Shown piece by piece: positions 10,232-60,044 of a stretch of DNA of 64,000 nt. The notes under the pieces were generated by a model, which worked only from the letters and a program-made list of their open reading frames with translations, had not been told where the DNA came from and searched no databases. Source of the DNA: Thermoplasmatota archaeon (GTDB lineage Archaea; Thermoplasmatota; E2; JACPAO01; JAHFTW01). The stretch's first letter is position 1. Each line of letters opens with the position of its first letter. The stretch lies in contig JBFIHX010000005.1 in the NCBI GenBank assembly GCA_041601615.1, positions 40,774 through 104,773 on the forward strand. Direction: 5' to 3'. Position numbers and translations under genes: made by a program.

Positions 10232-10890
10232 TCACGATGACTGACGAATCTATCATTCAGACGGAAGAACAGCTCGCGGAGGTCGCCGCAGAGGAGACCG
10301 CACCCGAGGAGCCCGTGGTCGTCCTGCCCGAGACCCCCCTCTTTGGTAAGTACGGCGCCGACGGCATCGAGATCCGCGACGTGGGCCTGGCCCGCTACAT
10401 TCGCCTCGAACTGGTCGGCTTGCCCCACAGCAGTGCTCGCCACGCCAACCGACGCTTTGCCAAGCAACGCGTCAACATTGTCGAACGCTTGATCAACAAC
10501 GTCATGCGCTCGGCTGCGTACAACGGCAAGAAGGGCAAGGCGTACAAGGTCGTCGAGGACGCTTTCGAGCGCATCGCCGAGAAGACCAAGGACAACCCGA
10601 TCCAGGCCCTAATCCGCGCTGTGGAGCACTCCGCTCCTCGCGAAGAGGTCACCCGCCTGCGCTACGGTGGCATCAACGTCCCCAAGGCCGTCGATGTTTC
10701 GCCCATGCGCCGTCTCGACATCGCTCTGCGCAACCTCGCAAAGGGTGGACTGGCTGGCTCCCACAAGAGCACCAAGCCCGCCGCCCACTGCCTCGCCGAT
10801 GAGATCATGAAGGCCGCCAAGGGCGACCCCGGATCCTTCTCGGTCGGTAAGAAGGACGAGCTTGAGCGCGTCGCCAAGTCTGCTCGCTAA
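10228..10890 (+). CDS. rps7: 30S ribosomal protein S7 (uS7)
   Basis: Conserved uS7 sequence (...[35 protein letters not shown]...). GTG at 10228 overlaps the S12 stop; the first ATG is at 10237. Confidence 0.95.
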
Positions 10891-10960
10891 GCTCGCAGCC
10901 TAGTCGACGCACTCAAGCATGGCGTCTTCGACGCCCGCCAGAGTCGGCACCGCCGACTCC

Positions 10961-10996
10961 GGCGAATTGGAACGCGTCGCCAAGTCTGCACGCTAG
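10961..10996 (+). repeat. Echo copy of the rps7 3' end (encodes [11 protein letters not shown]) about 70 nt downstream of the real stop
   Basis: Real end is ...gacgagcttgagcgcgtcgccaagtctgctcgctaa ([11 protein letters not shown]). Echo is ggcgaattggaacgcgtcgccaagtctgcacgctag. Most differences are synonymous. Confidence 0.6.
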
Positions 10997-11020
10997 AGCC
11001 TCGGCGTCTTCGAGAAAAAC

Positions 11021-11065
11021 ACCTTCACCCTCCTCTTCCAATCCTCTTTCCTTCGCTCCTATTTT
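11021..11065 (+). terminator. C/T-rich tract after the rps7 echo
   Basis: accttcaccctcctcttccaatcctctttccttcgctcctatttt. Confidence 0.2.
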
Positions 11066-11126
11066 GGGGTCGCTTGAAATGTGCGGCCCAATGTTCTTCG
11101 CCGTCGGCGCACGCCGGCAGGATGGG

Positions 11127-11540
11127 ATGAAGATGCACGAAACAACCACCGTGCGGTGGGTCCTCGTCGTGGACGATGATCCATTGCATCGGCTGCTGAT
11201 GAGAGACAGCGTAGAGCAAGCTGGGCCAACGAACACTTGGGTGCTGGAAGCGCCCGACGGAGCCACCGCTCAGTCGATTCTGGCAAAATTGCCTGCTCGC
11301 GCGGTGTTTCTCATGACGGACCGCAACATGCCGGGATCGATCCATGGAGACGCCCTTTTGGAAGGCCATCTTGCGCGCGGCGGAAGTGGAGTCTTGGTTA
11401 CTTCGGATGCACGATTCGTGGGGCATTCTCCTTACTGCATCCAGAAACCCGATCACATGACGGGCTGGGCCGAGCTTGGACGGCGAATCTTCACGGGTCC
11501 TCCGACCCATGCCTGGGCTCCATTGCTCATGTGTGGTTGA
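11127..11540 (+). CDS. Stand-alone response-regulator receiver (CheY-like REC) domain protein
   Basis: VLVVDDDPLHRLLMRDSVEQ...VFLMTDRNMPG... carries the REC acidic pocket and phospho-acceptor Asp context. Start ambiguous between 11064 and 11127. Confidence 0.5.
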   Translation: MKMHETTTVRWVLVVDDDPLHRLLMRDSVEQAGPTNTWVLEAPDGATAQSILAKLPARAVFLMTDRNMPGSIHGDALLEGHLARGGSGVLVTSDARFVGHSPYCIQKPDHMTGWAELGRRIFTGPPTHAWAPLLMCG

Positions 11541-11754
11541 TGAGGTGGGCTGGTGGCGCTGGTTGTTGCGGTCAGGGGTTTCCCGCGTCAAGGATGGGGG
11601 TGGAATGGGGCCTTGGGGCGCCGTGCTTCTTGTCCCGTGGCCCGGAGCGTCGAAGTCGCGGCTAAGTATCTCCGGATTAGATAGATCGGGATAGATAGAT
11701 AAGAACCACAGCCATCAGCCTAAAACGTACTGAACATTGTGGGACGCGATCGTC

Positions 11755-14925: not shown

Positions 14926-15413
14926 GCGGTTCCGGTTCCTTGTCCTCCATTTTTCCCGTTCCGGGACTGCTTCTTGGCTTGGCGGCGGTGGCGTTGCTTG
15001 TGACGGCCTTGCCGGGCATTCCGGTCGTGGAGCCGGAGGAGGGCTTTGCTGTGTTTCACATGAACAGCGCTCTTGCGGAGGGCAATTCCAAGTTCCAGGA
15101 GATCTTTGTCGTGGACCGGGTGGCGCCGGATTTGGCGGCAAACATCGAGGGCGTGGAGATGTTTCTGGATGGCGAGCCGTTTGCCGTGCTGTGGGAGCCG
15201 GCGTCGGGGCCGTTGCAGCGCAATGCGACGTTTTCGTTTGTGATGGAGGCGTTTGACCAGCAGCAGGTGTTGACTGCGAAGTGGCAGGGCGAGGAAGTGA
15301 TGCGCTGTCAATTTGGAGGCGGTGCCGGTTTTGCGGGGCTGCATCCGGATGAGCTTCGCAGCATGGGTCAGGGGCACAAGATTCGTTGCCTGGATGGGGC
15401 CGCAGACGGCTGA
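14922..15413 (+). CDS. Small membrane-anchored protein, translationally coupled to the acidic protein (GTGA overlap)
   Basis: N-terminal TM segment (LLLGLAAVALLVTAL). GTG start overlaps the upstream TGA. Confidence 0.4.
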   Translation: MSGSGSLSSIFPVPGLLLGLAAVALLVTALPGIPVVEPEEGFAVFHMNSALAEGNSKFQEIFVVDRVAPDLAANIEGVEMFLDGEPFAVLWEPASGPLQRNATFSFVMEAFDQQQVLTAKWQGEEVMRCQFGGGAGFAGLHPDELRSMGQGHKIRCLDGAADG

Positions 15414-15778: not shown

Positions 15779-15785
15779 GCCTGGC

Positions 15786-16910
15786 TTAGATAAGCGCCAT
15801 TTGGTAGCCGTTGCCGGTTGCGGCTTGGTGTTCAAGGGTGTACAAGTGGTACATGTGGCCCTCGGCAACACCCATGTTGTTGACGTCGAACACGAAGATC
15901 AGGAACTCGATGCCGTTGTTGATCACGGCAAAGTTGGCGCTGCTTGGGACCGATGCTTCGAGCACTGCCCGCTTGGCGCACGCGGTCAAGTCGGTGTCGC
16001 AGCAGCGGTTTGGATCCAATTGGCAGGGCACATGCATGGCCCAGGCGAGCGGCAGGACGGGAGCGTAGAGCACTTCGACGTTGATGGTGTCTGTGCGGCT
16101 CTTGCCGGGCACGCATCCAAAGAATTCAGCATCGTATTCTAGGCACACTTGTGCGCTGGCAATGGATTGGACGTAGCCCGTGTCGGCGGCGGCTTGCACT
16201 TGGAATCCGTGTGCTTCGTGGACGAACTCCAGCATGAATTTGATGACGATGTTGCAGATTCCGGGTTGCCCTACGATGCCGAAGCCGATGCGGTCGTCAC
16301 GGAAATCCATGAGATTTCCGGCGGTTTCGTTGTCGTGGTTGCCGCCCTTGGTGTAGCGCTCTAGGGAGTTGAGCGCCAGTGTGGGTGCAAGCATGTCGTG
16401 GACTTGCCCATCGATGCAGTCTGCTTGTAGGGTGACAAATTCCATGCCGCGCGAGGTTTGTCGCGCGGTCCACTGGTTGGTGCCTGTGGGTTGGGGAGCC
16501 TCGCCTGCTTCTCGATCCAAACTTGGGAACCATCCGTCTCCAGGTTCGATCCAGAATGCGATGGGTTTGAACATATCCGCAGTAATGTGGACCGTGCCGT
16601 TGACAAAGCCTCGTTGTTTTTCTTGCAGTTGCGGCAGCAGGGCATCGGTGGGTGCGTGGGCGATGCCGCTGTCGCGAAGATCTTCGACATCCTGGGCCAT
16701 GGGGTCGTCGGGGGTTCCCATGGTCAGATCCTGACCTATGCGGCTGATGGTCCAATCGATGGTCGTTTGGGATGTCTCAAGCACGGAGCGTTCCAGTTTT
16801 TGTGTGCTGGATGGGTTCAGCTTGAGGGCCACGCCGGTTACGAGTGGGACCGCGAGTGTGGCCGCGACCAGGAGGGCGAGTGTCATCTTTTGTTTCTGAT
16901 TCATGTTCAT
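15786..16910 (-). CDS. Secreted protein (374 aa), hypothetical; coupled to the giant protein by an ATGA overlap
   Basis: Signal peptide MNMNQKQKMTLALLVAATLAVPLVTGVA. Its ATG overlaps the TGA of the 4,717-aa ORF (caATGAacATGA on the minus strand). Confidence 0.55.
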   Translation of the reverse strand: MNMNQKQKMTLALLVAATLAVPLVTGVALKLNPSSTQKLERSVLETSQTTIDWTISRIGQDLTMGTPDDPMAQDVEDLRDSGIAHAPTDALLPQLQEKQRGFVNGTVHITADMFKPIAFWIEPGDGWFPSLDREAGEAPQPTGTNQWTARQTSRGMEFVTLQADCIDGQVHDMLAPTLALNSLERYTKGGNHDNETAGNLMDFRDDRIGFGIVGQPGICNIVIKFMLEFVHEAHGFQVQAAADTGYVQSIASAQVCLEYDAEFFGCVPGKSRTDTINVEVLYAPVLPLAWAMHVPCQLDPNRCCDTDLTACAKRAVLEASVPSSANFAVINNGIEFLIFVFDVNNMGVAEGHMYHLYTLEHQAATGNGYQMALI

Positions 16911-19900
16911 TGCCTCTTGAAAGCGACCACGTCGTCGTACCATCCAACGCCGCGGCCGCTTCTGCCGGCGTCTGGACTTGGGAAAACATCTCCGACGCCT
17001 ATGCGCTTGTCGGAGCCGGTTGTGATGGAGCTGGTGAAGGTGGAGTTGGTGTCATCGTCCAAGGTGACGGCGACGGAAGTGGAGGTCACTTCGACGCGGA
17101 CGAAGTGCCATTCCTTCTCGTTCTTGAGGCAGACGCCGCCTTCGCTGATGCGGGTGTTGCCGTTGTAGAGGTGGACGCGCCAGTCGCCGGCGTCGCAGTC
17201 GATTTCTTGGGAGGGTCCAAGAGTGACGGCCCAGCGGGGTGCGTCGTCGCTCTTGAGCCCGGATAGGATGGCCTGATGTTCTGGTTTGTTCAGGCTGTCC
17301 CCGATAGCGAAGGCGGCCTCGACGGTGTATTTGGAGCCGAGTCCGGTGGTTGGGAAGGAGGCGTAGGTGCGGCCGCCGGGGGATGTGGCTCCGGTGACTT
17401 GCAGGTAGCCGTTGCCTAGGAATCCGGATCCAGCGTAGGTCTTGAGGCCGCTGCCGGTTTCGGACCAACCGAATGCGGTGAGGGGTTGCACGAAGGTGTG
17501 GTCGTGTCGGCTGGTGTCCATGTCGATGCGTAGGCGATCGATGTCGACGGTGTTGGCGCCGCCGCCCGCTTCCACGGTTGCTGCGGGGCCGTCGGCGTGG
17601 AGGGGCACCCAGACGGAGGAGAGTTGGTCTCGTTGGATGAGGGCGTGGCCGTGGCGGATGAAGATGTCAAAGCGGTGCCAGCGGCTGTCGACGGAGCTGA
17701 GGATGGTCCAGTTTCCGTTGCCTTCTTCCACTTCGAGGGTGCTGTAGCGGACGCGGGCGCGTACCATCATGTCTCCGTCGTCGTTGCGCACGGTGAAGAC
17801 GGGGTCTTCGATGGCTGGTTTGGCTTTGATGCGGAATGTCAGGTGCGAGGAGGACGGCAGATCTACGGGAGGGCTCTTGGCGGCGAGGGTGTGGCCGGAG
17901 TCTGGTTGGATGGAGAGGTAGGTGGGTCCTCCGGCGGTGCCGAGTGTGTTGGTGTCTTGGAGGGTTCCTTGACCGATGGGTTGCCAGCCGTCGCCGCCGA
18001 GGATGGGTTGGTCTTCCAGTAGGTTGCGCAGGTCCGAATCGAGGAGGCTCACTTTGGGTGCGGTCCACATGGCGGATGCTGATTGCACGCGTGTGGATTC
18101 CAGCCGGATGGGGCCGGAGAGCGGTAGGGAGCCGAGGTATGTTTCGTCCAGGAACGCTTCCATGCGTCCGTCGGCGGCTATGAGGTCGAAGCGGTACCAC
18201 TGGGATTTGAGGGTGATGTTGCCGATGGCGATGCTTTGGTTTCCTACGGTCAGCGTTAGGGTGTTGCTGGCGTAGCGGAGGTGGGCGATGTCTCCTTCGT
18301 CGCCTTCGAGGGCTAGGAATTCGGTGCTTCCGGGGTTGGTTCCGGGGTTGCTCCATTGGGTCACGGTCAGCAATGCGGAGTGCGCGGCGAGGGGTGTGTG
18401 TAGGGATCCGCCGTAGGTGTAGCCAAGTTTCTGGGATGTTCCGTCGGGTCCGTAGCCGTTGTAGTAGTTGTGGGCGTTGCCTTGGGGTTGCATTTGTGCA
18501 ACTTGGGGTTGGATGCCGTCTTTGGCGAAATGGAAGGAGTGGCGCCATGCTGTGCTGCGGCCGTTGTTGGCGGTCACGAGCAGGGTCACTTCCTCTTGTT
18601 GGTCTTCGTCAAGGTCAATGGTTGCTTCGTAGCGGTTGCTGCCGACGGAGGTGAAGCTGATGGGTCCGAGCCGGCTGGTGGCTTGGATGTCCATGGTGGC
18701 GTCCGGGTGGGGTGGGGTGATTTCGAGGGCGAGCGTGAACACGCCGGGGTCGGTTTCGCTGGACCAGATGGTGGTGCCGGGCGTTGAGACGGAGGCGACG
18801 TGGCCGCTTACGGGCAATCCGAGGTCGCCGGAGCCGAGGCGGGTGGTGCCGGCAAAGCTTGGACTCAGGAGTCCGATGCTCGGTAGTTCGGCGTTCACGA
18901 AGATTTCGAGGACTTGGCAGGTGCCGGGGTTGCCTGCTTGGTCGACGGGGCAGAGGGTGTAGGTTGCCAGTTCGTTCGTGGGGGGCGTTGTGTCTTCGTA
19001 GCGGCTGGCGTGGGTCCAGGTTTCGTTGCTGGTGCCGCTGGTGCTTGTGCGTTGCACGAGGATGTGGCTAGGGTTGCGCTCGGCGAGGGTGTAGTCGATG
19101 CCGACGGTGCCGGATTCGTAGTTGATGCTGTTTGCGTCGAGGAGGGGGGCGGTGCGGTCTCCTTCGACTTGGCCTAGGTATATTTCGAGTTCGTTGGCGG
19201 CGCCATCGAGGACGCGGACGTAGGCTTGGAGGGCTTGGTTTTCGAGTTCGGCGGGGATGTCGAGCAGCGTTCCGGGGCCGGCGGTGATGAGCGGTGTGCT
19301 GTTGGCGTCGGGTCGTAGTTCGATGGCGTTCCAGGTGATGCCGGTGTCGACGGCGCCTTGGTCGTCAAGGGCGGTCCAGGTTTGGTTGATGCCGGCGGCT
19401 CCGATGAGGGCGGGGAGGCTTGGTGGGTCCTGGATTGCGGGGGCCACGAGGTCGATGACGAAGGCGGAGGAATGGTTGGTCCAGGTGTGGCCGGCGCCGT
19501 CTTGGCCGTGCAGAACGAGTTGGACTTCTTGGCCGTGGAAGCGGGTGTACTTGGTGTCGTTTAGGTGGATGGTTTCGTGGATGGTCAGGGTTTGGTTGCC
19601 GGATTGGGTCTGGATGGGTTCTGTGTCGCTGCCGTCGGTGGTTTGTAGGAACAACTCGAAGGTGATGGCTTCGCAGCCGCCGCTGACGAGTTGGCCGGCG
19701 GCGATGATGGGGCGGTAGCCGATGGCTTCGCCCATGGCTTGGATGTTGTTTCCGACTTCGCGGAAGAAGCCGTCGAGGCCGGGGAGGGGGTTGCCGAGGG
19801 GGTGGCGGCGGTCTACGACGACGAGGGTGGCGCCGGAGAGGAGGATGTTGCGTTCTTCTTCGGGCATGTTTTGGAGTTGGACTTGGGTCCAGTGTTCGCC

Positions 19901-31045: not shown

Positions 31046-31140
31046 GGGGACACCGGCCAAGAAACGCCCACCGGGGGCCCGACGCCGCGCATGCGCGATG
31101 GTCGAGACCAGAAGGCTACCGCAACATCCGGGGATGCTAC

Positions 31141-31553: not shown

Positions 31554-33755
31554 ATGGGACGCAAGGAAGACAACATCAAGAAGGCCACCGAGATCATGCA
31601 CAATCTCGACGGCATCCGCAACATCGCCATCGCGGCGCACATCGACCACGGCAAGACGACGTTCTCCGACAACCTGCTGGCTGGCGCCGGCATGATGTCG
31701 GCGGACCTTGCTGGTGAACAGCGAGCCCTCGACTTCGACGAAGAAGAGCAAGCCCGCGGCATCACCATCAACTCCGCGTCCGCCTCGATGGTGCACACCT
31801 ACGAAGGCAATGACTACCTCATCAACCTCATCGACACCCCCGGTCACGTTGACTTTGGTGGCGACGTAACCCGCGCCATGCGCGCCGTCGACGGCTGCAT
31901 CATCCTGGTGTGCGCCGTGGAAGGCCCCATGCCGCAAACCGAGACCGTGGTGCGCCAGGCCCTTCGTGAGAAGGTCCAGCCGACCCTCTTCATCAACAAG
32001 GTTGACCGCCTCATCAACGAGCTGAAGGTCACGCCTGCCCAGATGCAAGAGCGCTTCGTCAAGCACATCAACAAAGTCAACCAGCTCATCAACGCCAACC
32101 TCCCGAAGGAATTCAAGGGCAAGTGGGGCGTTCGCATCGAGGACGGCACCGTCATGTTCGGCAGTGCCTACCACAACTGGGGCATGTCCGTTCCCTACAT
32201 GCAAAAGCACAAGATCGGCTTCGCCCGCATCTTCGAACTTTGCCACGCCAACGACGAGAAGCAACTCGCCAAGGAATGCCCCATCGCCGATGTTGTACTG
32301 GACACCGTGGTTCGCTCCCTGCCGAGCCCCAAGGTCGCCCAAGAATACCGCATCCGCCACATCTGGCACGGCGACCAAGACAGCACCGCAGGCATCGACA
32401 TGCGCGAAGCCAAGAGCAAGGGTGTCACGACCTTCATGGTCACCAAGATCATGATGGACCCCCACGCTGGTGAAATCGCCGTCGGCCGCCTCTTCTCCGG
32501 CGCCCTGACCCGCGGAGACGAACTGTTCATCGCCGGTACCAAGACCAAGAACCGCGTCCAGCAAGTCGGCATGATGATCGGCGCCGACCGTGTGGCCGTC
32601 GACAAGATCACCGCCGGCAACATCGCCGCCGTCACCGGCCTGCGCGATGCCATGGCCGGTATGACCCTCACCAGCGACACCGAGATGGAGCCCTTCGAGC
32701 GCATCATCCACGTCAGTGACCCCGTCGTCACCGTCGCTGTGGAAGCCAAGAACATGCGCGACTTGCCCAAGCTCGTCGACACCCTGCGCAGTGTAGCCAA
32801 GGGTGATCCCAGCCTGGTCCTTTCGATCAACCAGGAAACTGGCGAGAACCTGATGAGTGGCATGGGTGAACTCCACTTGGAAATCATTCAGCACCGCATC
32901 GAGCGCGACTACAAACTGGAGATCATCTGCTCCACGCCCATCGTCGTGTACCGAGAGAGTGTCTCCGCTACCAGCCCATACCCCTTCGAAGGCAAGTCCC
33001 CCAACCGCCACAACCGGTTCTACATCACCGCCGAACCCCTAGACGAGGCGATTGTCAAGGGCCTGCACGACAACACCATCCCGAGCGAAGCCAAGAAGCA
33101 CGCCAAGGAAATCGAGTCGATCATGTACAACGAGTACGGCTGGGAGAAGGACATGGCCAAGAAGGTCAAGGCCATCGACGGCACCTGCATGCTCGTGGAC
33201 GCCACCAAGGGTATCCAGTACCTGCACGAGACCTTCGAACTGATCACGGAAGGCTGGAAGGAAGTCATCAAGGCCGGCCCCCGCGCCGGCGAACCGGTCC
33301 AAGGCGTCCTGTTCAAGCTGACCGACGCCAAGCTCCACGAGGACGCTGTCCACCGCGGCCCCGCGCAAGTGATTCCCGCCGTGCGCAACGCCACCTACGG
33401 CGCCATGACCACGGCCAAGTCCATCCTGATCGAACCCATGCAGAAGGCGGTCGTCACGACCCCCGACGACGTCATGGGCAACGCCACGCGCGAGTTCCAG
33501 AGCCGCCGCGGCCTCATCCAGGACATGCAACAGGAGGGTGATTCCACCACCATCACGGCCAAGACCCCGGTCGCCGAGATGTTCGGATTCGCCGGCGCCA
33601 TCCGCTCCGCAACGGGCGGCCGCGCCATCTGGTCCACGGAAAACCTAGGCTTCGAAGTGCTCGACATGGCCCTTCAGGACAAGGTCACGCGCCAAATCCG
33701 CGAACGCAAGGGCCTCAAGCCCGACCCGTACCCGCCTGAGTATTACGCTGAGTGA
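31554..33755 (+). CDS. fusA: Elongation factor 2 (aEF-2)
   Basis: GTP-binding motifs AHIDHGKTT, DTPGHVDF, NKVD. Full-length 733 aa archaeal EF-2. Confidence 0.95.
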   Translation: MGRKEDNIKKATEIMHNLDGIRNIAIAAHIDHGKTTFSDNLLAGAGMMSADLAGEQRALDFDEEEQARGITINSASASMVHTYEGNDYLINLIDTPGHVDFGGDVTRAMRAVDGCIILVCAVEGPMPQTETVVRQALREKVQPTLFINKVDRLINELKVTPAQMQERFVKHINKVNQLINANLPKEFKGKWGVRIEDGTVMFGSAYHNWGMSVPYMQKHKIGFARIFELCHANDEKQLAKECPIADVVLDTVVRSLPSPKVAQEYRIRHIWHGDQDSTAGIDMREAKSKGVTTFMVTKIMMDPHAGEIAVGRLFSGALTRGDELFIAGTKTKNRVQQVGMMIGADRVAVDKITAGNIAAVTGLRDAMAGMTLTSDTEMEPFERIIHVSDPVVTVAVEAKNMRDLPKLVDTLRSVAKGDPSLVLSINQETGENLMSGMGELHLEIIQHRIERDYKLEIICSTPIVVYRESVSATSPYPFEGKSPNRHNRFYITAEPLDEAIVKGLHDNTIPSEAKKHAKEIESIMYNEYGWEKDMAKKVKAIDGTCMLVDATKGIQYLHETFELITEGWKEVIKAGPRAGEPVQGVLFKLTDAKLHEDAVHRGPAQVIPAVRNATYGAMTTAKSILIEPMQKAVVTTPDDVMGNATREFQSRRGLIQDMQQEGDSTTITAKTPVAEMFGFAGAIRSATGGRAIWSTENLGFEVLDMALQDKVTRQIRERKGLKPDPYPPEYYAE

Positions 33756-33786
33756 GGGCGCAGCCCGAACGGGTGTAATACTCAGG
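33735..33786 (+). terminator. 12-bp stem hairpin formed by the fusA 3' end (cctgagtattac) and a downstream complement (gtaatactcagg)
   Basis: Arms at 33735-33746 and 33775-33786 are exactly complementary, with the loop containing the stop codon. Confidence 0.35.
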
Positions 33787-33829
33787 AGCGAGGCCCTCGG
33801 GCCGAGCGTCGCTGCGGCCCACTTGTGGG

Positions 33830-33859
33830 CCGTATGCGCCTGAGTATTACGCTGGGTAG
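33830..33859 (+). repeat. Echo copy of the fusA 3' end (encodes PYAPEYYAG*), about 75 nt after the true stop
   Basis: Real end ccgtacccgcctgagtattacgctgagtga versus echo ccgtatgcgcctgagtattacgctgggtag. The echo could also pair with the 33775-33786 arm. Confidence 0.55.
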
Positions 33860-33900
33860 GCGAATTCGCGGCCCTGGGCGGCGGAATTGGACCGCCTCGA

Positions 33901-33947
33901 CCCACCCTTTTTCCTCCCTCTCCTCCCCCGCTCCTTCCCCCTTCGTT
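33901..33947 (+). terminator. C/T-rich tract between the fusA echo and aIF2-alpha
   Basis: cccaccctttttcctccctctcctcccccgctccttcccccttcgtt. Confidence 0.2.
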
Positions 33948-36506: not shown

Positions 36507-36863
36507 TTACGAAATGTATGAAATTACGAGCTTGCGAGCCCGTTGTCGGATGTCTCGGTGCACCTTGCCTTGCTTCTTCGTAATCCAGTGGTGCTTCATG
36601 GTCACGACGGTTTCGGTGTCGATGTGCGACTTCTTCCTCATTGACCCTTGATCCCAATGCGTGGGCTTGACCTCGACGAATGCCGCACCCGTTCCGGACC
36701 CACTTGTCATGGCACAGCAAAGATACTGTTCACCGTGCCCCGGGTATGCGTCATTGCTCAAGATGAGCCACGGTCGTTGGCCGCCAGTCACGAGTTCAGG
36801 ATCGTCGTCATGGTACGCGTCAGGGCCCCAAACGACGTCCCCCACGGAATACGGCGCAGACAT
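36507..36863 (-). CDS. PemK/MazF-like toxin (type II TA)
   Basis: VGDVVWGPDA...GQRPWLILSND...CCAMTSGSG...SHIDTETVVTMK follows the MazF/PemK spacing pattern (GD[IV]W...RP.L[IV].S...TS......T[IV]). Confidence 0.5.
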   Translation of the reverse strand: MSAPYSVGDVVWGPDAYHDDDPELVTGGQRPWLILSNDAYPGHGEQYLCCAMTSGSGTGAAFVEVKPTHWDQGSMRKKSHIDTETVVTMKHHWITKKQGKVHRDIRQRARKLVISYIS

Positions 36864-37187
36864 CTAGAACCAATCGTCCGGGTTTTCAGGGCCAAGGCGC
36901 TTGTTTAGGTCCAGTGTCGTTGCATGAATCATGGCTAGTTTTGCACCTTCCAGCTCGGCAGGTTGGAACCAGTAGACCCCCTGCTTGTCCAAGAGCCCGC
37001 GTTGCAGCAGTCGGCGAAGAACCGCTCCGAGAGTGTGGATTTCAATTCCGAGTGCATCCGCGATTTCAACGGAGCGCCAAGCTTCACCGGGTGTTGCGCG
37101 AATGAAGCTCATCACGCGCGTGGGATTTGAGTCGCCTGTGTCGCTGGCACGAGCGCCTTTGAGGAGGGTTGCTACCGCCATGGACAT
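36864..37187 (-). CDS. Putative antitoxin / winged-helix DNA-binding protein upstream of the toxin
   Basis: 107 aa, wHTH-like (WRSVEIADALGIEIHTLGAVLRRLLQRGLLDKQGVYWF). Stop abuts the toxin start (36864/36863). Confidence 0.4.
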   Translation of the reverse strand: MSMAVATLLKGARASDTGDSNPTRVMSFIRATPGEAWRSVEIADALGIEIHTLGAVLRRLLQRGLLDKQGVYWFQPAELEGAKLAMIHATTLDLNKRLGPENPDDWF

Positions 37188-40361: not shown

Positions 40362-41711
40362 ATGACGCTGCGAACGCTCGGCTGCGGAGAAGTCCAACCC
40401 GCGCACTACGGCACCGAACAGACCTTCGCTGGCTGGGTCCACACCCTACGCGCCAAGGGCAACATCGCCTTTTTGGAACTGCGCGACCAAACCGGCACCG
40501 TCCAGTTCGTGCTCCTGAAGAAAATGCTCGCCGAGAGCGCCCCCGGCCTCTTTGAAACCCTCACCGACGCCAGCGCCGAGAGTGCCGTGAGCATTACCGG
40601 CCTCGTCAAAGAATCAGACAAAGCCAAAGCCGGCTTCGAAGTTCTGCCCACCGCCGGCACCGTCCTCAACAAAGCCCAGACCCCGCTTCCCATGGCACTT
40701 TGGGACGAAGAAATCCACACCGGCCTCGACACCCGCCTCGACAACCGGTTCCTGGACCTGCGCGGCCCCCGCAGCGCCGCCATCTTCCGCATCCGCAGCG
40801 AAGTGCTGCGCGCCGGCCGTGAATACTTCCAGAGTCAAGGCTTCACCGAGATCACCACCAGCAACATCATCGCCGCAAGCAGCGAAGGCGGCACGGACAC
40901 CTACAAAGTGGACTGGTTTGGCAAGGAATGCTTCCTTTCGCAGTCGCCGCAACTCTACAAGCAAATGATGATGGCCAGCGGCCTCGACCGCGTCTACGAG
41001 ATCGCCCGCTACTTCCGCGCTGAAAAGCACAACACCGTGCGCCACCTCAACGAAAGCACCGCCTTCGACCTGGAACTCGCCTGGATTGAGTCGGAAGAAG
41101 ACGTGATGAAGATCATCGAAGGCCTCCTGCACCACATCTGGAAGGCCGTCGTCGAAAACTGCCCCCAGCACCTTGAAGCCCTCGGCGCCGATGTCCCCGT
41201 TCCCGCCCTGCCCTTCATGCGCGTCGCCTACGAAGACGCCCTCGCCATCATCAACGTCCGCGCCGGCGACCGCCTCCACGCGCCGCTTGCATTCGGCGAC
41301 GACATCGGCACCGAAGCCGAAAAAATCCTCGGCGAAGCGATGCGCGAAGACGGCCACGACTTCTACTTCATCACCAAGTGGCCCCTTGCCCCCAAACCGT
41401 TCTACGTCATGCCCGAGGACGGCACCCAAAACAGCCGACTCTCGCGCAGCTTCGACCTGGACTACCGAGGCGTGGAGCTCATCAGCGGCGCTCAACGCAT
41501 CCACGACCCCGAGTTGTTGGAACAAGGGATTGTGCGCTGGGGCCTGGATCCCAAAGACTTCGGGGATTACCTGGAGTCGTTCAAGTACGGCATGCCGCCG
41601 CACGGTGGATGTGGGATCGGCATCGAGCGGATTCTGATGCAGATGCTGGGCCTCAGCAACATACGCGAAGCCATTCTCTTCCCCCGCGACTTAGACCGCG
41701 TGACGCCGTAG
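40362..41711 (+). CDS. aspS: Aspartyl-tRNA synthetase, archaeal type
   Basis: N-terminal anticodon-binding OB fold and class II motifs (FRAEKHNT..., GGCGIGIERILM). Confidence 0.9.
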   Translation: MTLRTLGCGEVQPAHYGTEQTFAGWVHTLRAKGNIAFLELRDQTGTVQFVLLKKMLAESAPGLFETLTDASAESAVSITGLVKESDKAKAGFEVLPTAGTVLNKAQTPLPMALWDEEIHTGLDTRLDNRFLDLRGPRSAAIFRIRSEVLRAGREYFQSQGFTEITTSNIIAASSEGGTDTYKVDWFGKECFLSQSPQLYKQMMMASGLDRVYEIARYFRAEKHNTVRHLNESTAFDLELAWIESEEDVMKIIEGLLHHIWKAVVENCPQHLEALGADVPVPALPFMRVAYEDALAIINVRAGDRLHAPLAFGDDIGTEAEKILGEAMREDGHDFYFITKWPLAPKPFYVMPEDGTQNSRLSRSFDLDYRGVELISGAQRIHDPELLEQGIVRWGLDPKDFGDYLESFKYGMPPHGGCGIGIERILMQMLGLSNIREAILFPRDLDRVTP

Positions 41712-41794
41712 GCGTTGCGCGGTTTGCGGGGAAGGAAGGCTGAGCGGTTGCTGAGGGCCGGGAGCGAGTCGGCGGCGAAGCCGACGGCTGGCGA

Positions 41795-41860
41795 CTCGGG
41801 TTGCCGAATATACGCGAGGCGATCCTGTTTCCGAGGGATTTGGATCGGGTTACGCCGTAG
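41795..41860 (+). repeat. Echo copy of the last 22 codons of aspS (encodes LGLPNIREAILFPRDLDRVTP*), diverged almost only at synonymous third positions
   Basis: Real end is ctgggcctcagcaacatacgcgaagccattctcttcccccgcgacttagaccgcgtgacgccgtag (41646-41711). Echo is ctcgggttgccgaatatacgcgaggcgatcctgtttccgagggatttggatcgggttacgccgtag. 17 of 22 codons differ, with a single amino-acid change (S to P). Confidence 0.6.
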
Positions 41861-46318: not shown

Positions 46319-46328
46319 GTGGATGCGC

Positions 46329-50270: not shown

Positions 50271-50382
50271 GCCCTCCAGCCCTCTCCCGCTTCCTCTCTC
50301 CATCTCCCTTTCGCCCGCTCCCGCCCCCTCCATCCATCTCCCTCCCTTTTGTCTCTGTGCTCCTGTCGCTCCGCGGTTTCGG
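50271..50382 (+). terminator. Long C/T-rich low-complexity tract after coxII
   Basis: gccctccagccctctcccgcttcctctctccatctccctttcgcccgctcccgccccctccatccatctccctcccttttgtctctgtgctcctgtcgctcc. Confidence 0.2.
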
Positions 50383-51151: not shown

Positions 51152-51161
51152 GCTGAATCAA

Positions 51162-51492
51162 AAAGGGTCAATCGTTCGGGCCGGGTCGCGCCTAGCCCGG
51201 ACGACCTGTGGCGTTAGAACCAGCTGCTTAGGTCTCGTTGGACTGCGATTTCCAGCGATTCAGAACGACCCCCAAAGGGGTCGATCGTTTGGGCCGGTTC
51301 GCGCCATGCGCGACCGACCTGTGGCGTTAGAACCAGCTGCTTAGGTCTCGTTGGACTGCGAGTTCCAGCGATTCAGAACGACCCCCAAAGGGGTCGATCG
51401 TTTGGGCCGGTTCGCGCTCTGCGCGACCGACCTGTGGCGTTAGAACCAGCTGCTTAGGTCTCGTTGGACTGCGAGTTCCAGCGAATCGAAGC
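51162..51492. repeat. Three tandem 113-bp units; the distal unit is the authentic polB 3' end (last 18 codons plus flank), so the polB 3' terminus is tandemly triplicated
   Basis: ttagaaccagctgcttaggtctcgttggactgcga(g/t)ttccagcga(a/t)t recurs at 51214, 51327 and 51440. Copies differ by a few SNPs, and each contains short GC-rich palindromes. Fills the whole regulator-polB intergenic space. Confidence 0.85.
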
Positions 51493-54406
51493 CAAAGGCT
51501 CCCTTCACGTAATTTTCAACCATTTCCTTGTACCATGCCCAGTCCACGGTGTGCTCCTGTTTGTGCTCGATGATGTAGTCCACGGGCCACATGTACTCAA
51601 TGGGCTTGATGCCGGACTTGCGGGGCTTCTTGATTTGAAGATTGTAGCCGCTCGTGGCAAGTTTTTGCTTGGTGTCCGTCTGTACTTTTGGATCGTGGTA
51701 CAGGGGCAGCGGGTCCTTGCAGATGACGAATTTGAATTTGCGGCCCTGTCGGATCGGCTCTCCCAGTAGGTGCTCGACGGCGATGGTGCGCACGGCGAAC
51801 GTGGAGAGGGTGCCGTCGGGGTTCGGCTTGTAGCTACGCACCGGTTGGACACTCTGGCGAAGCACCAGATCCTCCCATGGCGTCTCGTGGATGTGCACGC
51901 CGCTCATGACGTCCTTGGTGGCGCGCTTGATGGCGGTCTTCATGCGCTCGCGGGCGTCTTCTTCCTCGGTCCAACTGGACACTTCCAGGAGCGCCTTTTT
52001 CATGATGGGGTGCAGGAGTTTCTGGGCGAGCGGCGCCTTGTCGCTGCCCTTGAAGTTGTTGCCCTTGGTCTCCATCACCAACTCGTCGCCCTTGGTTTTG
52101 AACTTGAGGTAGTTCTTGTGGACGATGAACACCATAGCGTCGTACTGTTCCGCCTCCAACTCGAAGTCCTCGTAGTCGAGCTCCTTGCGCCAGCGTAGAT
52201 TCGCGGTCTCGACGGCCTTGAGCGCCTTATCTGGGAGTGTAATCCAGGAATCAGCGTCTGGTAGCTCGTCGGCGCCCACGGCGGCGGCCAAGTGCGGTAA
52301 ATTGCCGACGGATTTGCTGCATCCAAGGTAGATGCCATCCGTGTCGCCATACACCACTCGGATGCCTTCCTTCTCGAAGTCCTCGCGGGTCTCGTGCAGC
52401 ACTTTTTGGCCAATGGTGGTGATGTTGGCGCCGCCCCAGACGTTGAATTGACGGCACGAGACGTTGACTGCCACGAGAATGCCGTGGGTGCCAGCGTTGC
52501 GGGCGGCCTTGAGGCTCGCGTAGGTCATGTCGAGGATACGGATCTGGTCCTTGTCGGCGCCCGTGCGTTTGGCCTCGGCGCGGGCGTTCTTGACCTTCTG
52601 AATGGTGTCCAAAATCCCCGTCATGGCGGAGTTGACGAGGCCGTCTTCGGCGCGGTGCTTGACGCCGATCATCCAGCCACGGCCCCGCGTGAACGTCTCT
52701 GCGGGCAGGGGTCGGCGCACTTCGTAGCGACCCGATTCCGCAAAGCCAGGCTCCAAGTCCATGAGCCAAATCCAATCGTCCACTTTCTCGCCCTTGCGCG
52801 CCGGCTGCACGGTGTCGGCGGTGAGGTTCTGGGCCTTGAGGATCGTCGGATACATGGCGCCCACGTCTGCTTCGACGACGTGGAACCAGGGGACGAAGTG
52901 GCTCTGGAGGTCGCTGTCGGGCTTCAGCGTCAGGCCGCCGACGATGGCATAGCCGTGCGGGTTGTCCTTTCCGCCGTTGGAGCGGCTGATGACGCCCGGG
53001 TGCTCGACCCAGAACGGCATTTCGGGGCCCTGCTTGGCCACACGCAAGAACTCTTTCTCGGCAGCCTCGGGGCCTGCGGTGAGCACGGCCTGGGACACGT
53101 CTTCGCGGGTGGGAAAGTCGTCGTAGGGAATGGCGCGTTGGACGCTGCGAGCAATGCTCTGGGCGCGGCACGTGGCGGGCATGATGCGGCGCTGGCGGCG
53201 GGCACGCAGGAAGGCCATGTGGTCCCACATTTTCGTATTGCCACCGGTCAAGAGGCTGTCCAGGGGCATGTTGACGGTGAAGCCGAGCGGGAGCGCCTGG
53301 GTAAGGAGAATTTGCGTAATGCCGAGTTGCTCTTGCACGTCGTGCTTGTTGTACTGGAGTGTCTTGGCGTCGAGGCCCATGTTGGCGGCCTCCATGTAGA
53401 CGCGGCCCGGCACCTCGACGCCGAGCCAGGGAGCCAAGCCCTTGAGCGTGAAATCGTCATGGAAGAAGTAGAATTTGCGCGCCGCGTGGAATGTGTCCAG
53501 CGTCGTGGGGTGAAACACGCTGATGTCGCTGCTGCTTCCGAAGTGGAAGGAACGGTCTTTGCGGCTCCAGGTGTCCGTGAATTCGTTGAACCAGGACCGC
53601 ATGCCCTTGCTCAGGAACTCCTGCTTTTGGTCGCGGGCCAAGAACGACCCGATGCGGTTGCGGATTTGCAGGTTGTCGAAGCCCAGAACGTTGTGGCCCG
53701 CAATGATGTCGTGCGTCACCGATTTTTGGGTGAACTGCATCAAGTTGTCCAGTTCATCATCCTCGTTGTGCGCCACCAATTGGACGACTTCCTTGCCGAG
53801 GTAGTCTTGGTCCATGTCCGTGAGCCGGAAGTCGAATGCCTCCGTTTCCAAGTCCTTGCTTGCTTCGTACTTGACGTCGAAATCCGCGTACCCAATGACG
53901 TCGATGGGGATCTCCTTCTTGCCCGAGCCGTACTCCGTGGTCTCGATGTCGTACGTCAAAACGGAGAGCTGTGCCGGCTTGCCTTTCGTGTCCCAGAGCC
54001 ACCAGTCATGCTCGGCGCCAAGGTCTCCAAGGGCGCGCTCGATGTAGGGAATGTCGTGCTCGGCTGTGTAGAAGCCGTGGTCCCAGAACAAGCGGTCGGA
54101 CACTTCCGGCACCCAGTACGGCCGCTTGCAGGTGACGGGAATCACCTTGCGGCTGCGGTTGTGGTCCCAAAACGACTGGTATGAGAGCGGTTCGCCCACT
54201 TCCAAGACTTTCGACAGGTCCTCTGAGTTCGGGTCGCCGCCGCGAGCCTCATCCACTGCCGCAAGCAACCGAGTGCGAGCATCCGCGACCGATTCGTCGC
54301 CCCGGGGCCATGCCAGGAAGGCCGGCGCGTGCAGTCCCGCCAGGGGTTGCGGGTCCCGTCCCTGCCAAAACAGGTGGGTGTTGGAGGCGTTCAGCAGCGG
54401 CTGCAC
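51440..54406 (-). CDS. polB: DNA polymerase B (family B replicative polymerase, no intein)
   Basis: Exonuclease and polymerase motifs (...DVGAMYPTILK..., ...YGDTDGIYL...). 988 aa. GTG start at 54406. Confidence 0.9.
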   Translation of the reverse strand: MQPLLNASNTHLFWQGRDPQPLAGLHAPAFLAWPRGDESVADARTRLLAAVDEARGGDPNSEDLSKVLEVGEPLSYQSFWDHNRSRKVIPVTCKRPYWVPEVSDRLFWDHGFYTAEHDIPYIERALGDLGAEHDWWLWDTKGKPAQLSVLTYDIETTEYGSGKKEIPIDVIGYADFDVKYEASKDLETEAFDFRLTDMDQDYLGKEVVQLVAHNEDDELDNLMQFTQKSVTHDIIAGHNVLGFDNLQIRNRIGSFLARDQKQEFLSKGMRSWFNEFTDTWSRKDRSFHFGSSSDISVFHPTTLDTFHAARKFYFFHDDFTLKGLAPWLGVEVPGRVYMEAANMGLDAKTLQYNKHDVQEQLGITQILLTQALPLGFTVNMPLDSLLTGGNTKMWDHMAFLRARRQRRIMPATCRAQSIARSVQRAIPYDDFPTREDVSQAVLTAGPEAAEKEFLRVAKQGPEMPFWVEHPGVISRSNGGKDNPHGYAIVGGLTLKPDSDLQSHFVPWFHVVEADVGAMYPTILKAQNLTADTVQPARKGEKVDDWIWLMDLEPGFAESGRYEVRRPLPAETFTRGRGWMIGVKHRAEDGLVNSAMTGILDTIQKVKNARAEAKRTGADKDQIRILDMTYASLKAARNAGTHGILVAVNVSCRQFNVWGGANITTIGQKVLHETREDFEKEGIRVVYGDTDGIYLGCSKSVGNLPHLAAAVGADELPDADSWITLPDKALKAVETANLRWRKELDYEDFELEAEQYDAMVFIVHKNYLKFKTKGDELVMETKGNNFKGSDKAPLAQKLLHPIMKKALLEVSSWTEEEDARERMKTAIKRATKDVMSGVHIHETPWEDLVLRQSVQPVRSYKPNPDGTLSTFAVRTIAVEHLLGEPIRQGRKFKFVICKDPLPLYHDPKVQTDTKQKLATSGYNLQIKKPRKSGIKPIEYMWPVDYIIEHKQEHTVDWAWYKEMVENYVKGAFGFDSLELAVQRDLSSWF

Positions 54407-55195: not shown

Positions 55196-55268
55196 TGCGC
55201 ACCCGTTTGTTTTAGGGTGTTGGGGCCGGGCCGTCAGGGGCCTCGGTTTTGTCCCAATTTGCCAAGAT

Positions 55269-56486: not shown

Positions 56487-56585
56487 GGAGGCCGGCGGAG
56501 GCACTTGAGGTCATTCGTTCTGCTCCAGGGGTCAGCGAAAGCACTCGGGCCATGTCTCAAATGCCCGCGCCCCCTGCAAAGCCCA

Positions 56586-57728: not shown

Positions 57729-57780
57729 CGCATCGGCCACCACCGAAGCAGCCAAGAGCCAACGCCACAACGGGGGCCCC

Positions 57781-58098
57781 ATGGTCCAAGCCGCATGGAT
57801 GAAACAGGCGCTGCTAGCGGTCGTCCCCGACGCCGACGTGCACCCCACGGACCTCACCGGAGGCGGCGACCACTGGCACGTCGTCCTCGTCGCCGCATCC
57901 TTCGAGGGCCAACGCAGCTTCCAGCGCCAAAAACCCATCCTGGCCGCCATGACGCCCTACTTCCAAACCGGCGCCGTCCATGCCCTCGACCTCAAATGCA
58001 TCACGCCCACGGAGCTGGCGGACAAATTTGAGGGAAAGCTGCCCATTCCGTTCGTGCCGCACCAACAAGGCGAAGGGATGCACCCGAACGACTGGTAA
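57781..58098 (+). CDS. BolA-family protein
   Basis: ...GGGDHWHVVLVAASFEGQRSFQRQKPILAAM...GAVHALDLKCITPTE fits the BolA fold signature. Confidence 0.6.
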   Translation: MVQAAWMKQALLAVVPDADVHPTDLTGGGDHWHVVLVAASFEGQRSFQRQKPILAAMTPYFQTGAVHALDLKCITPTELADKFEGKLPIPFVPHQQGEGMHPNDW

Positions 58099-58298
58099 CG
58101 CGCCGATTCCACTCGTTCGAGCCGACGGCTAGGTGCGCCGGAACCCGAACGCGGGGCATGGACCACGTCAACTTCGAAGAAATAGGCCTGTTTTGGAACA
58201 CGCTTTGGGCTGTGGGGCTGGCTCTGGTTGCACACCACGTTTTCGTGTGATATGTGCCGGGGCTGAGACTTATCGCGTATAAGTGCCGAGGTGTTGCA

Positions 58299-59375
58299 CT
58301 AATCAGCGAGGGCTTGCCGGAACACATCCTGCAAAAACCGCGTGCTGATGCGGTACTCGGCGCCTTTTTTGTCACCGCGTCGCTCCAAGAATCCGTCACT
58401 GGTCAGGGTCGCAAGCGCCTTGCTCATGCCGCTGCCGCTGTGGCCGCCGTCATTGGGAAAATCCCTGCGTGCAAACCAATCGCCGTCGCCACCGATGGCC
58501 CACAACGCCATGTTGCGCGCCGACTGGCTGTGCAGACCGTCTAGGTAGGGCTTGAGGTCGCCCAGATGGACCGCGTCCGTGTATGCCCGCTTCAGTTGCC
58601 GTGCGAAGTACCGGGTCCAGACGTGCCAGGTCCTGCCGTCATTCGTGCTGCGGATCGCGTCGTAATAACGCTCGCCGCTGCGAAAAAAGCGGGCGTCGAG
58701 CGGTACCAGGCCGATGTTCTGGAACCCCAGCCACTTCAGGACGTGCGCGTTCAGCAGACGCCCGATGCGCCCGTTGCCGTCGTGAAACGGATGGATGCCC
58801 TGAAACTCGGCAAAAAACATCGCCGCCACCGACACGGGCTCGCCCTTGTACTGATATGCTGCGAGCCACGCACACAGCGCGTCCAATTCCTGACGGGTGC
58901 GTTCCGGTGGAGTCGCCACGAAGGTCCATACACCCGGCATGGGCCCGACGCCGTTCTGGGCGACTTTGAGGCGGCCCGGGCCGAACTCGTCGTTCTGACC
59001 CGCGTAGATGCTCCCGTGCAGGGCACAGATCGAATCCGTCGTCAGGGGCGCAAGCTCACTGCGCTGGGTCTCGTGGATGTGCTGGTACTCACGGGCAAAC
59101 CGAAGGGTCTCCAGTTCTGACTGGGTCGTGGGGGTCGAGCCGTCGAAGATCTGCCTGGCCCTGCCAAAATCGATGAGCACGCCCTCCTGGCGCAAACTGC
59201 TGACCACATTGCGAAGACGCGCCATGGTGAGAACGGCCCGGTGCAGGTTCTGGCTCAATACGCCGTCGTCGAGCTTGCCATCCAGGCGCAGGCATTGCCG
59301 GCCTGGGCTGACCACCGCCACGTCTGAAGGAATGCGTGGGCGGAAGCCGTCGGAGGTGTCTGCCTTCACCTGCAC
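58299..59375 (-). CDS. Fic-family protein (AMPylator-like), with an N-terminal wHTH-like region
   Basis: Canonical Fic motif HPFHDGNGRIGR. Confidence 0.7.
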   Translation of the reverse strand: MQVKADTSDGFRPRIPSDVAVVSPGRQCLRLDGKLDDGVLSQNLHRAVLTMARLRNVVSSLRQEGVLIDFGRARQIFDGSTPTTQSELETLRFAREYQHIHETQRSELAPLTTDSICALHGSIYAGQNDEFGPGRLKVAQNGVGPMPGVWTFVATPPERTRQELDALCAWLAAYQYKGEPVSVAAMFFAEFQGIHPFHDGNGRIGRLLNAHVLKWLGFQNIGLVPLDARFFRSGERYYDAIRSTNDGRTWHVWTRYFARQLKRAYTDAVHLGDLKPYLDGLHSQSARNMALWAIGGDGDWFARRDFPNDGGHSGSGMSKALATLTSDGFLERRGDKKGAEYRISTRFLQDVFRQALAD

Positions 59376-59475
59376 GAAGATATGTATAAAATAAGCATAT
59401 CATAGCATTTGCGTATGGCCAGGCGCTTATGCTCCGGCGCAAACGCTCAAGTCCCGCCGCCCCGACTGACCCCTC

Positions 59476-59859
59476 ATGGACATCCCAATGGCCGGTGCTC
59501 CCGCCGCCGCCCCGACTGCCAACTTCGCCCTCACGCCCGAGCAAAAGCAGGAGTGGGACGACCTCATCGCCAGCAACGACCTCGTGTTGTTCATGAAGGG
59601 CACCCCGGACGCGCCCCAGTGTGGCTTCAGTGCCCGCGCCGCCGGCGTGCTGCAGCACCTGGAGCGCCCCTTTGCGCACGTGAACATGTTCGCGCAGCCG
59701 GACCCGCGACAAGCCATCCAAGCCATTGCCGAGTGGTCCCAATTCCCGACCCTTCCGCAGGTCTACGTCAAGGGTGAACTCATCGGCGGCAGCGACATTG
59801 CGTTGGAGATGTTGGAAAGCGGCGAACTGAGTGAGATGCTGGGCGAAGCCCAGGATTGA
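59476..59859 (+). CDS. Monothiol glutaredoxin (CGFS type, Grx4/GrxD-like)
   Basis: CGFS active site (GTPDAPQCGFSARAAGVL) and a conserved C-terminal helix. Confidence 0.8.
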   Translation: MDIPMAGAPAAAPTANFALTPEQKQEWDDLIASNDLVLFMKGTPDAPQCGFSARAAGVLQHLERPFAHVNMFAQPDPRQAIQAIAEWSQFPTLPQVYVKGELIGGSDIALEMLESGELSEMLGEAQD

Positions 59860-60044
59860 GCGAGGGAGCCGCTTTCTTTGCTGCTGTGCCGCCAGGTGCA
59901 GCACGCTGGAGAGTGGCGAACTGGAGGATGTGTTGGGCGAAGCCCAGGATTGAGCGAGGAAGCCGCTTTCTTTGCTGCTGTGCCGCCAGGTGCAGCACGC
60001 TGGAGAGTGGCGAGCTGGAGGATGTGCTGGGCGAAGCCAGCTAA
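59860..60044 (+). repeat. Two tandem copies of about 94 and 91 bp, each ending with an echo of the grx 3' end (LESGELEDVLGEAQD* and LESGELEDVLGEAS*)
   Basis: The gene end ...ttggaaagcggcgaactgagtgagatgctgggcgaagcccaggattga recurs as ...ctggagagtggcga(a/g)ctggaggatgtg(t/c)tgggcgaagcc(caggattga/agctaa) at the end of each unit. Confidence 0.8.

Follow-up and report, generated by a model that had tools for sequence, protein, structure and literature searches.

We analysed a stretch of 64,000 nucleotides, hereafter the window, of chromosomal DNA (62% G+C) from an uncultured Thermoplasmatota archaeon, in which the ends of several conserved genes recur shortly behind their stop codons. Five of its approximately 37 genes, those for ribosomal protein S7 (rps7), elongation factor aEF-2 (fusA), AspRS (aspS), PolB (polB), and glutaredoxin (grx), are each followed by what we call an echo, a copy of the last 9 to 21 codons and the stop codon situated 94 to 149 nt downstream. 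Pfam supported the identities of all five genes. The relatives of the window PolB were all metagenome-assembled genomes (MAGs) of Thermoplasmatota, polB (51440-54406), for which 25 relatives have orthologues, is an ordinary gene of the chromosome, and S7, AspRS, and EF-2 are encoded together on one NCBI contig of 200,547 nt. A first-pass annotation had reported echoes at these five loci, and all of them were present, at or close to where it had placed them. Each locus has the layout of a working end (E1), a GC-rich spacer of 47 to 165 nt with 63 to 80% G+C, and an echo (E3). Loci of other genomes are designated below by L numbers. The features of the window are as follows.

10858..10890, plus strand: working 3' end of rps7 (E1).
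10888..10923, plus strand: inverted copy of the gene end in the rps7 spacer (reverse-strand match 26/36, fold, p~0).
10941..10959, plus strand: terminal GC hairpin of the rps7 spacer, GAGTCGGC-ACC-GCCGACTC; the echo starts 4 nt later.
10964..10996, plus strand: rps7 echo (E3), orthologous to the L094 echo and adjoining the ancestral pyrimidine-rich tract.
33726..33755, plus strand: working 3' end of aEF-2, PYPPEYYAE and stop.
33773..33786, plus strand: inverted copy of the aEF-2 gene end, forming a stem of ~15 bp with 33734-33748 (p=0.015).
33815..33832, plus strand: GC hairpin of the aEF-2 spacer with a CTTG loop; it abuts or overlaps the start of the echo.
33830..33859, plus strand: aEF-2 echo, PYAPEYYAG and stop.
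41649..41711, plus strand: working 3' end of aspS, GLSNIREAILFPRDLDRVTP and stop, allele type 'CTC AGC..CCC CGC'.
41712..41759, plus strand: degenerate inverted copy of the aspS gene end, of the E1 type (p~0 and direct reading).
41758..41799, plus strand: GC hairpin of the aspS spacer with a GCGAAGC loop, ending at the echo.
41798..41860, plus strand: aspS echo, GLPNIREAILFPRDLDRVTP and stop, of the allele type that L108, a sister species without an echo, has at its working end.
51161..51499, minus strand: polB array, three units of 113 nt, with the stop codon at 51440-51442; reproduced in L097.
59813..60044, plus strand: grx array, 2.4 units of 94 nt; L026 has one unit fewer.

At rps7 the echo lies 106 nt from the working end and matches it at 27 of 33 nucleotides and in all 10 amino acids plus the stop; the inverted copy in the spacer forms a hairpin with E1 that has the stop codon near its apex. 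The aEF-2 echo (offset 104 nt) agrees with its gene at 26 of 30 nucleotides and in 7 of 9 amino acids plus the stop. At aspS (149 nt), 20 of 60 nucleotides differ with a single amino-acid difference, 20 of the 21 codons specifying the same residue. The polB unit (113 nt) comprises 49 nt of gene end and a 64-nt spacer with two hairpins, the working end occupying 51440-51488 and the echoes 51327-51375 and 51214-51262. The grx locus (94 nt) reads, in order, working end (59813-59859), spacer (59860-59906), echo (59907-59953), spacer (59954-60000), and an older, truncated echo (60001-60044). None of the five offsets is divisible by three.

The pattern exceeds what chance would give. When the last 30 nt of 39 gene ends in the window were compared with the following 350 nt, the five echo genes scored 22 to 30 of 30 and all other genes at most 16; in the background, scores of at least 22 arose at about 0.5 to 0.9%, and mostly from the echoes themselves. 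None of 36 gene starts had an equivalent upstream duplicate (0/36 versus 5/39 gene ends). A stop-anchored peptide scan recovered the five genes in the window, five clear cases and one doubtful match in 369 kb of loci from the same clade, and no echo in 820 kb of outgroup archaeal loci fetched with EF-2. Echo repeats were 73 to 226 nt apart, and in the window and the loci of the same clade no gene-end copy was found at a distance above 450 nt. At orthologous genes, lineages with their own versions of an echo numbered four for rps7, three each for aspS and polB, and two each for grx and EF-2.

Several other repeats in the relatives were recorded beside these. Locus L002 (700-1140) has a gene ending in EFARTNAFWRR and stop, followed by three echoes at 93-nt spacing (ARTNAYWRR once and WTNAYWRR twice, each with a stop); it belongs to JANQNI, the MAG that also holds the L109 (aspS) and L113 (EF-2) echoes. 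Other short-range direct repeats in relatives were rejected as echoes, since they proved to be repeats within protein genes, small paralogous genes, tRNA-like repeats, or an artefact of scaffolding. Just past a gene end in L017 (17299-17406) there is a 62-nt tandem duplication of a hairpin region in the 3' untranslated region (UTR) that includes no coding sequence. L025 (19080-19350) carries two tRNA-like segments 219 nt apart, sharing the motif GGATTCGAGCCC, which may be a tRNA gene and its partial duplicate.

The echoes were reproduced in independent assemblies. The NCBI MAG contig L097 was 100% identical to the window across the complete three-unit polB array, and Logan contigs of run SRR29257386 matched the window identically until the contigs ended, one of them (L096) inside that array. 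In another species the rps7 echo was identical in three separate JGI metagenomes, and in a further species six MAGs consistently had no rps7 echo. This recurrence, both in independent assemblies and at orthologous loci of other species, demonstrates that the echoes are real genome features and not assembly errors. The copy number of the arrays is less certain than the existence of the echoes: L026 is 99.7 to 99.9% identical to the window except that it has one grx unit fewer.

The spacers are the most strongly structured 3' regions of the window. Folds at the echo loci reached -50 to -65 kcal/mol, compared with about -37 kcal/mol at other genes, and four of the six perfect intergenic GC hairpins in the window lie inside echo spacers. 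In the window and relatives, the last spacer stem ended 0 to 6 nt before the echo in 15 of 15 cases. Orthologues that have no echo lack such hairpins (L102 fold z=0.08). Two classes of echo could be distinguished, as the first-pass annotation had correctly proposed. In the diverged single echoes the order is sense, antisense, hairpins, and sense, since the spacer opens with an inverted copy of the gene end. This inverted copy was significant for rps7, aspS, fusA, and the rps7 gene of L094, and borderline for grx; the start of the aspS spacer matches gene positions -64 to -27 in inverted orientation, the fusA copy forms a 15-bp stem, and that of grx is weaker. The near-identical arrays (polB in the window, and L007, L024, and L001 in relatives) have no inverted copy and resemble plain tandem duplications; none was found in the spacers of polB, L007, or L024.

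The additional hairpins in the spacers had no detectable local template source. Comparison of the spacers of the five loci revealed no common sequence, terminal inverted repeats, or common ends, and repeat searches of the window returned local families only. A spacer motif shared across genes was sought by direct comparison and discarded, since only generic stable loops (CTTG, GCGAAGC) emerged. Such loop types (GTGCTTGCAC, GCGAAGC, CTGCAAGCAG) recur across genes and genomes on differing stems, at 33815-33832 and 41770-41785 in the window and in the spacers of L094, L098, L099, L109, and L113. Between L098 and L099, the terminal hairpins of the rps7 spacer differ by two compensatory pair changes. 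Rfam gave no match anywhere in the window at the gathering threshold.

The tandem arrays expand and contract by unequal exchange. The middle grx unit is a hybrid, its 5' part resembling the last unit and its 3' part and spacer the first, which is the product expected of unequal crossing-over between the first and last copies; it is this unit that L026 lacks. The polB spacer is orthologous in the window and L001, with units of 113 and 143 nt, respectively. The right junction is common to both, just past the second hairpin, whereas the left junctions differ (49 versus 79 nt), which indicates that the two arrays are separate events at one hairpin-defined site. Besides window polB, young echoes identical in nucleotide sequence to their gene ends were found for grx in L007 (68/68), in L024 (31/31), for EF-2 in L113 (27/27), and for aspS in L109 (19/19).

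The differences between working ends and echoes, and between the echoes of different lineages, were almost all synonymous. When an equal number of substitutions was placed at random, this pattern had P<=0.001-0.003 for rps7, aspS, L001 polB, L002, and L094/98/99; in comparisons of rps7 echoes with one another, P was 0.00005 in two of three cases and 0.02 in the third. This near-exclusively synonymous pattern means that the echoes were coding until recently or have been refreshed from a coding copy. In L098 and L099, lineage-specific synonymous variants are common to both rps7 copies within a genome, which points to some gene conversion. In three rps7 lineages, the serine codons of the working end and those of the echo belong to opposite families (AGC versus TCT). 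At 27 nt, the rps7 copies are too short for a phylogeny to tell concerted evolution from import.

The echoes are not universally protected. The aspS echo of L010 has a 1-nt deletion, only 19 nt of the echo are left behind five hairpins at aspS of L109, and amino-acid changes are present in the grx and fusA echoes. The EF-2 echo of L113, otherwise identical to the gene end, no longer has a stop (TAG to CAG), and a 28-nt hairpin insertion interrupts it. This GC hairpin (TTCCGGACCTGCAAGCAGGTCCGGAT, L113 3762-3833) has a 6-nt direct repeat, GACGCG, on both sides, which suggests that small hairpins are inserted with short target duplications. The proposal of the first-pass annotation that the diverged echoes are alternative 3' ends maintained by selection was not upheld: the echoes lie out of frame behind a stop codon and some (L010, L113) are decaying. 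Their synonymous differences are better explained if the echo is a former working end, or the allele of another lineage, than if it is a maintained alternative end.

We then asked which of the two copies is the older. The rps7 echo is present in four lineages (the window, L094, L098, and L099-101) and missing from L102-107. In every genome with the echo a pyrimidine-rich tract adjoins the echo; in the echo-less L102-107 it comes immediately after the gene. Compared with its sister species L094, the window is about 90% identical in the gene body and in the echo with its downstream flank, whereas the working ends are about 72% identical and the spacers unalignable; the L094 working end is of a foreign type. 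From the position of the tract and these identities, the echo is the old end of rps7. The picture was clearest at aspS. The sister species L108 (95% amino-acid identity) lacks an echo, and the allele type at its working end is that of the window's echo (TTG, Pro, CCG AGG, TTG GAT), whereas the working end of the window and the adjacent inverted copy are of another type (CTC AGC, CCC CGC), one that occurs in L111/112, which are more distant and echo-less. Informative sites that place the window with L108, against those that place it with L111, stood at 226:58 in the first 1170 nt and at 16:18 in the last 180 nt. The last 150 to 180 nt of aspS, with the spacer, are thus a recombinant patch. At both genes, the echo and downstream flank are the ancestral gene end, and the working end and spacer an inserted or replaced block. 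At polB of L001, seven changes separate the working end from the echo, every one of them synonymous, and 55 nt of the two spacers are identical, which looks like an allele replacement ending at the stop codon.

On the basis of these observations, the reading we favour, at a probability of roughly 45%, is that template switching or slippage produced duplications across the stop codon, and that unequal crossing-over, together with recombination that exchanged the working end, then remodelled them. The echoes have the look of scars, left where copying errors and recombination affected gene ends, rather than of working alternative ends. Each would be a duplicate without function, or an earlier copy, of the terminal codons and stop that lies in the 3' UTR downstream of a newly formed GC-rich hairpin spacer. 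Hairpins and inverted copies are known products of short-range template switching (PMC8794818, PMC8604942). Going by the anatomy of the loci, synthesis may have stalled at or just past a stop-proximal hairpin and switched template. Re-alignment upstream through 2 to 5 nt of microhomology would give a plain tandem duplication of gene end and spacer; copying of the opposite strand first, followed by return upstream, would give gene end, inverted gene end, hairpins, and gene end. Because only duplications that span the stop codon spare the open reading frame (ORF), survivors would accumulate at 3' ends. Direct repeats then grew into arrays and changed copy number by unequal crossing-over or slippage, as is shown at grx and polB. 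The working end and spacer were replaced or imported through homologous recombination or gene conversion between related lineages, with conserved coding sequence as the anchor; this is shown for aspS and suggested for rps7 and L001 polB. An imported working end would thereby come to lie beside the echo of an older native allele, so that the copies would differ almost only synonymously. The spacer hairpins are probably retained as stable RNA structures at 3' ends while the echo itself decays; the compensatory changes in L098/L099 and the recurrent stable loops (CTTG, GCGAAGC) hint at such retention. Slippage at terminators, one of the explanations offered in the first-pass annotation, has partial support, where the tandem arrays and the hairpin found at each junction are concerned.

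Among known systems, the echoes resemble short-range or quasipalindrome template switching under the four-point model (PMC8794818, PMC8604942, PMC7954356), in which one event gives an adjacent inverted copy with a hairpin and may re-copy sequence directly. Common to both are multinucleotide changes, perfect stems, and junctions at hairpins, and a reverse-complement copy of adjacent sequence was found at rps7, aspS, fusA, and L094 rps7. Unlike that system, the events described here are concentrated, at high density and within a single archaeal clade, on stop-spanning segments of conserved genes, involve repeats of 19 to 79 nt with extra hairpins between the copies, and often leave a working copy of another allele. 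Arrays made by slippage and unequal crossing-over share with polB and grx the head-to-tail units, the variation in copy number, and the hybrid unit; they do not explain single echoes without a repeated spacer or the allele difference between copies. Integrative elements at the 3'-distal part of tRNA and protein genes, including the casposons of aEF-2 (PMC6563490, PMC4046053), likewise supply a 3' end, displace the native end as a direct repeat, and use conserved targets, and reconstitution of the 3' end by inserted DNA, as at an attachment (att) site, was found at rps7 and aspS. However, the 'element' here would be 47 to 165 nt long and gene-less, without terminal inverted repeats or common sequence, with no integrase or Cas1 nearby, and without the 14-15-bp target duplication of casposons. 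Diversity-generating retroelements (DGRs) also have a repeat of the gene 3' end shortly downstream with an adjoining hairpin, whereas the echo loci have no reverse transcriptase, synonymous rather than adenine-specific differences, and housekeeping targets. Repetitive extragenic palindromes (REP) and bacterial interspersed mosaic elements (BIME) are GC-rich hairpins just after stop codons and probable stabilisers of RNA 3' ends; the echo spacers differ from these and from REP/miniature inverted-repeat transposable element (MITE) families in having no genome-wide consensus sequence, and REPs do not duplicate the coding end. Judged by their defining features, the echoes are not integrative elements, casposons, DGRs, or members of REP/MITE families; they behave like template-switch and slippage scars and, in part, like attL/attR displacement at gene 3' ends.

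Several observations weigh against the template-switch reading. The hairpins between inverted copy and echo exceed what one event with two switches explains, and several single echoes lack the second spacer copy that simple tandem duplication predicts. All echo genes are highly conserved housekeeping genes, a bias that recombination or a targeted element would explain more readily than copying errors at random. The rps7 echoes of four lineages differ only synonymously, and the spacer of L098/L099 is seemingly homologous; if the cassette is that old, its echo should have decayed unless it was refreshed by gene conversion or selected. The aspS import requires either a right-hand join within at most 60 nt of about 70% identity or an illegitimate join. 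The repeated hits on particular genes, the intactness of the rps7 echo in four lineages, and the AGC/TCT serine split are also left unexplained; together with the extra hairpins and the restriction to conserved genes, they keep a targeted cassette or att-like mechanism alive as a possibility.

Among the alternatives, the one that survives best, although we regard it as unlikely, is that the echoes are scars of tiny mobile cassettes: a site-specific or trans-mobilised element would enter the 3' end of a conserved gene, carrying recoded terminal codons and a hairpin spacer, and displace the native end by attL/attR logic. The inserted part would then be the working end with its spacer, of foreign allele type as observed, and the native end the echo. 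Conserved targets would also be expected, and aEF-2 is a known archaeal integration target (PMC4046053, PMC6563490); the same genes were hit repeatedly across lineages, the aspS junctions fall at similar positions, and the 6-nt duplication flanks the L113 hairpin insertion. Nevertheless, Pfam scans of approximately 35 window genes detected no integrase, recombinase, transposase, Cas1, or reverse transcriptase, and the failure to find gene-end copies beyond 450 nt leaves no room for a kb-scale element. The spacers of different genes do not share sequence, terminal inverted repeats, or ends, the polB junctions are unlike between sister species (49 versus 79 nt), and the young cases are exact local duplicates. 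The end peptides of aspS and polB had no match on viral contigs (IMG/VR, 0 hits). Of the integration and excision scars suggested in the first-pass annotation, the logic of a replaced end fits rps7 and aspS, whereas integrases, transposases, reverse transcriptases, att pairs, a shared element, and viral hits were not found. In a bolder version, which we hold more doubtful still, recoded terminal codons, stop, and hairpin would form a new, gene-less minimal cassette homing, in lineages across Thermoplasmatota, to conserved genes at their 3' ends, with the duplicated codons as homology arm or recognition site. Such a cassette may install a stable 3' hairpin and displace the native end, the echo being kept intact by ongoing exchange between the copies.

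We give similarly low credence to the view that homology-facilitated illegitimate recombination with DNA of related lineages was the primary cause, without local duplication. A foreign 3' part with its 3' UTR would replace the resident one, and a join just upstream of the resident stop would leave a stub. The aspS patch of about 150 to 180 nt plus spacer has the form expected, as do the foreign-type working end of L094 rps7, the bias of echoes to conserved genes, and the variation of downstream neighbours between lineages. Stubs arising in this way should be broadly spread in length, whereas all were 19 to 79 nt, and donors would need inverted-copy hairpins that the echo-less genomes do not have. 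Nor does this view fit the young echoes that are identical to their own gene end, or the presence of a hairpin at every junction.

Still less probable, in our estimate, is a selected device, either an RNA switch whose inverted copy would pair in turn with working end or echo depending on translation, or a spare end kept by frequent recombination between copies that makes the echo the working end. Its appeal lies in the synonymous echo differences, even between lineages, the occurrence of the sense-antisense-sense layout, the compensatory changes in the L098/L099 terminal hairpins, the stable CTTG and GCGAAGC loops, and the AGC and TCT serine families of three rps7 lineages. These must be set against the decayed echoes of L010 and L113, the amino-acid changes in the fusA and grx echoes, the poor pairing of the window rps7 echo with the inverted copy, and a fold of aspS spacer plus echo that is not significant (z=-0.8); moreover, the sister species and many relatives manage without an echo, and no Rfam family matched.

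An assembly artefact from strain microdiversity in a MAG, as also raised in the first-pass annotation, is very improbable for the echoes themselves, given that NCBI, Logan, and JGI assemblies all contain these structures, that other species have them at the same place, that the longest exact runs shared by echo and gene end at rps7 and fusA (17 to 18 nt) are too short to confuse k-mer graphs, and that the window sits on a 200,547-nt contig; for the copy number of arrays it stays relevant, since contigs L001 and L096 terminate inside arrays and L026 differs from the window by one unit. A true scaffolding artefact, unlike the echoes, was seen in L013 (13598-13807), where a 55-nt exact repeat lies on either side of a run of N. 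Four further candidates were rejected: extension by read-through or frameshifting, because the spacings are not multiples of three and each echo lies behind a stop codon; a DGR, since there is no reverse transcriptase and the differences are synonymous and of all base types, with no adenine bias; a casposon footprint at aEF-2, where the 74-nt spacer has no ORF or terminal inverted repeats, there is no Cas1, and the repeat is 30 nt (18 exact) rather than 14-15 bp; and large integrated elements, for which the long-range search for gene-end copies came up empty.

If the template-switch reading is correct, this clade records at unusual density how template switching and recombination between lineages build 3' UTR hairpins, and how the ends of essential genes are remodelled without breaking the genes. 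Literature searches found no description of stop-spanning, peptide-preserving echoes at such density. As datable fossils of earlier alleles, the echoes could gauge recombination and the turnover of gene ends in uncultured archaea. In practice, they break short-read contigs, can carry tblastn matches beyond the true gene end (as seen for L001), and may be mistaken for att sites. Should a dedicated mechanism exist, it would represent a minimal mobile element of a new kind, with conserved genes as its targets.

Other features of the window and of the loci compared with it are as follows. The interval of about 20 kb between rps7 and aEF-2 (11000-31500) contains a response regulator, an ORF of 1062 aa, and a giant ORF of 4717 aa (16907-31060, minus strand). 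In the relative L099 one gene alone separates S12-S7 from EF-2, and the interval in the window therefore looks like an inserted island. Exact-protein look-ups with the response regulator and with EF-2 gave no match. At 36507-37187, a MazF/PemK-like toxin gene (36507-36863, minus strand) and a small upstream partner ORF probably constitute a toxin-antitoxin pair. The region 61007-64000 encodes a large secreted-type protein with BNR/Asp-box and thrombospondin type 3 calcium-binding repeats, the source of most other short-range direct repeats in the window. Long pyrimidine-rich (CT) tracts lie 3' of several gene ends and echoes (33900-33945, 50272-50349, and 11020-11060) and may be real terminator or promoter-spacer regions of the clade. 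At the outgroup EF-2 loci (L029-L049 and others), the match spanned about 2.7 kb rather than 2.2 kb in many contigs of 45 to 50% G+C, which suggests an insertion, possibly an intein.

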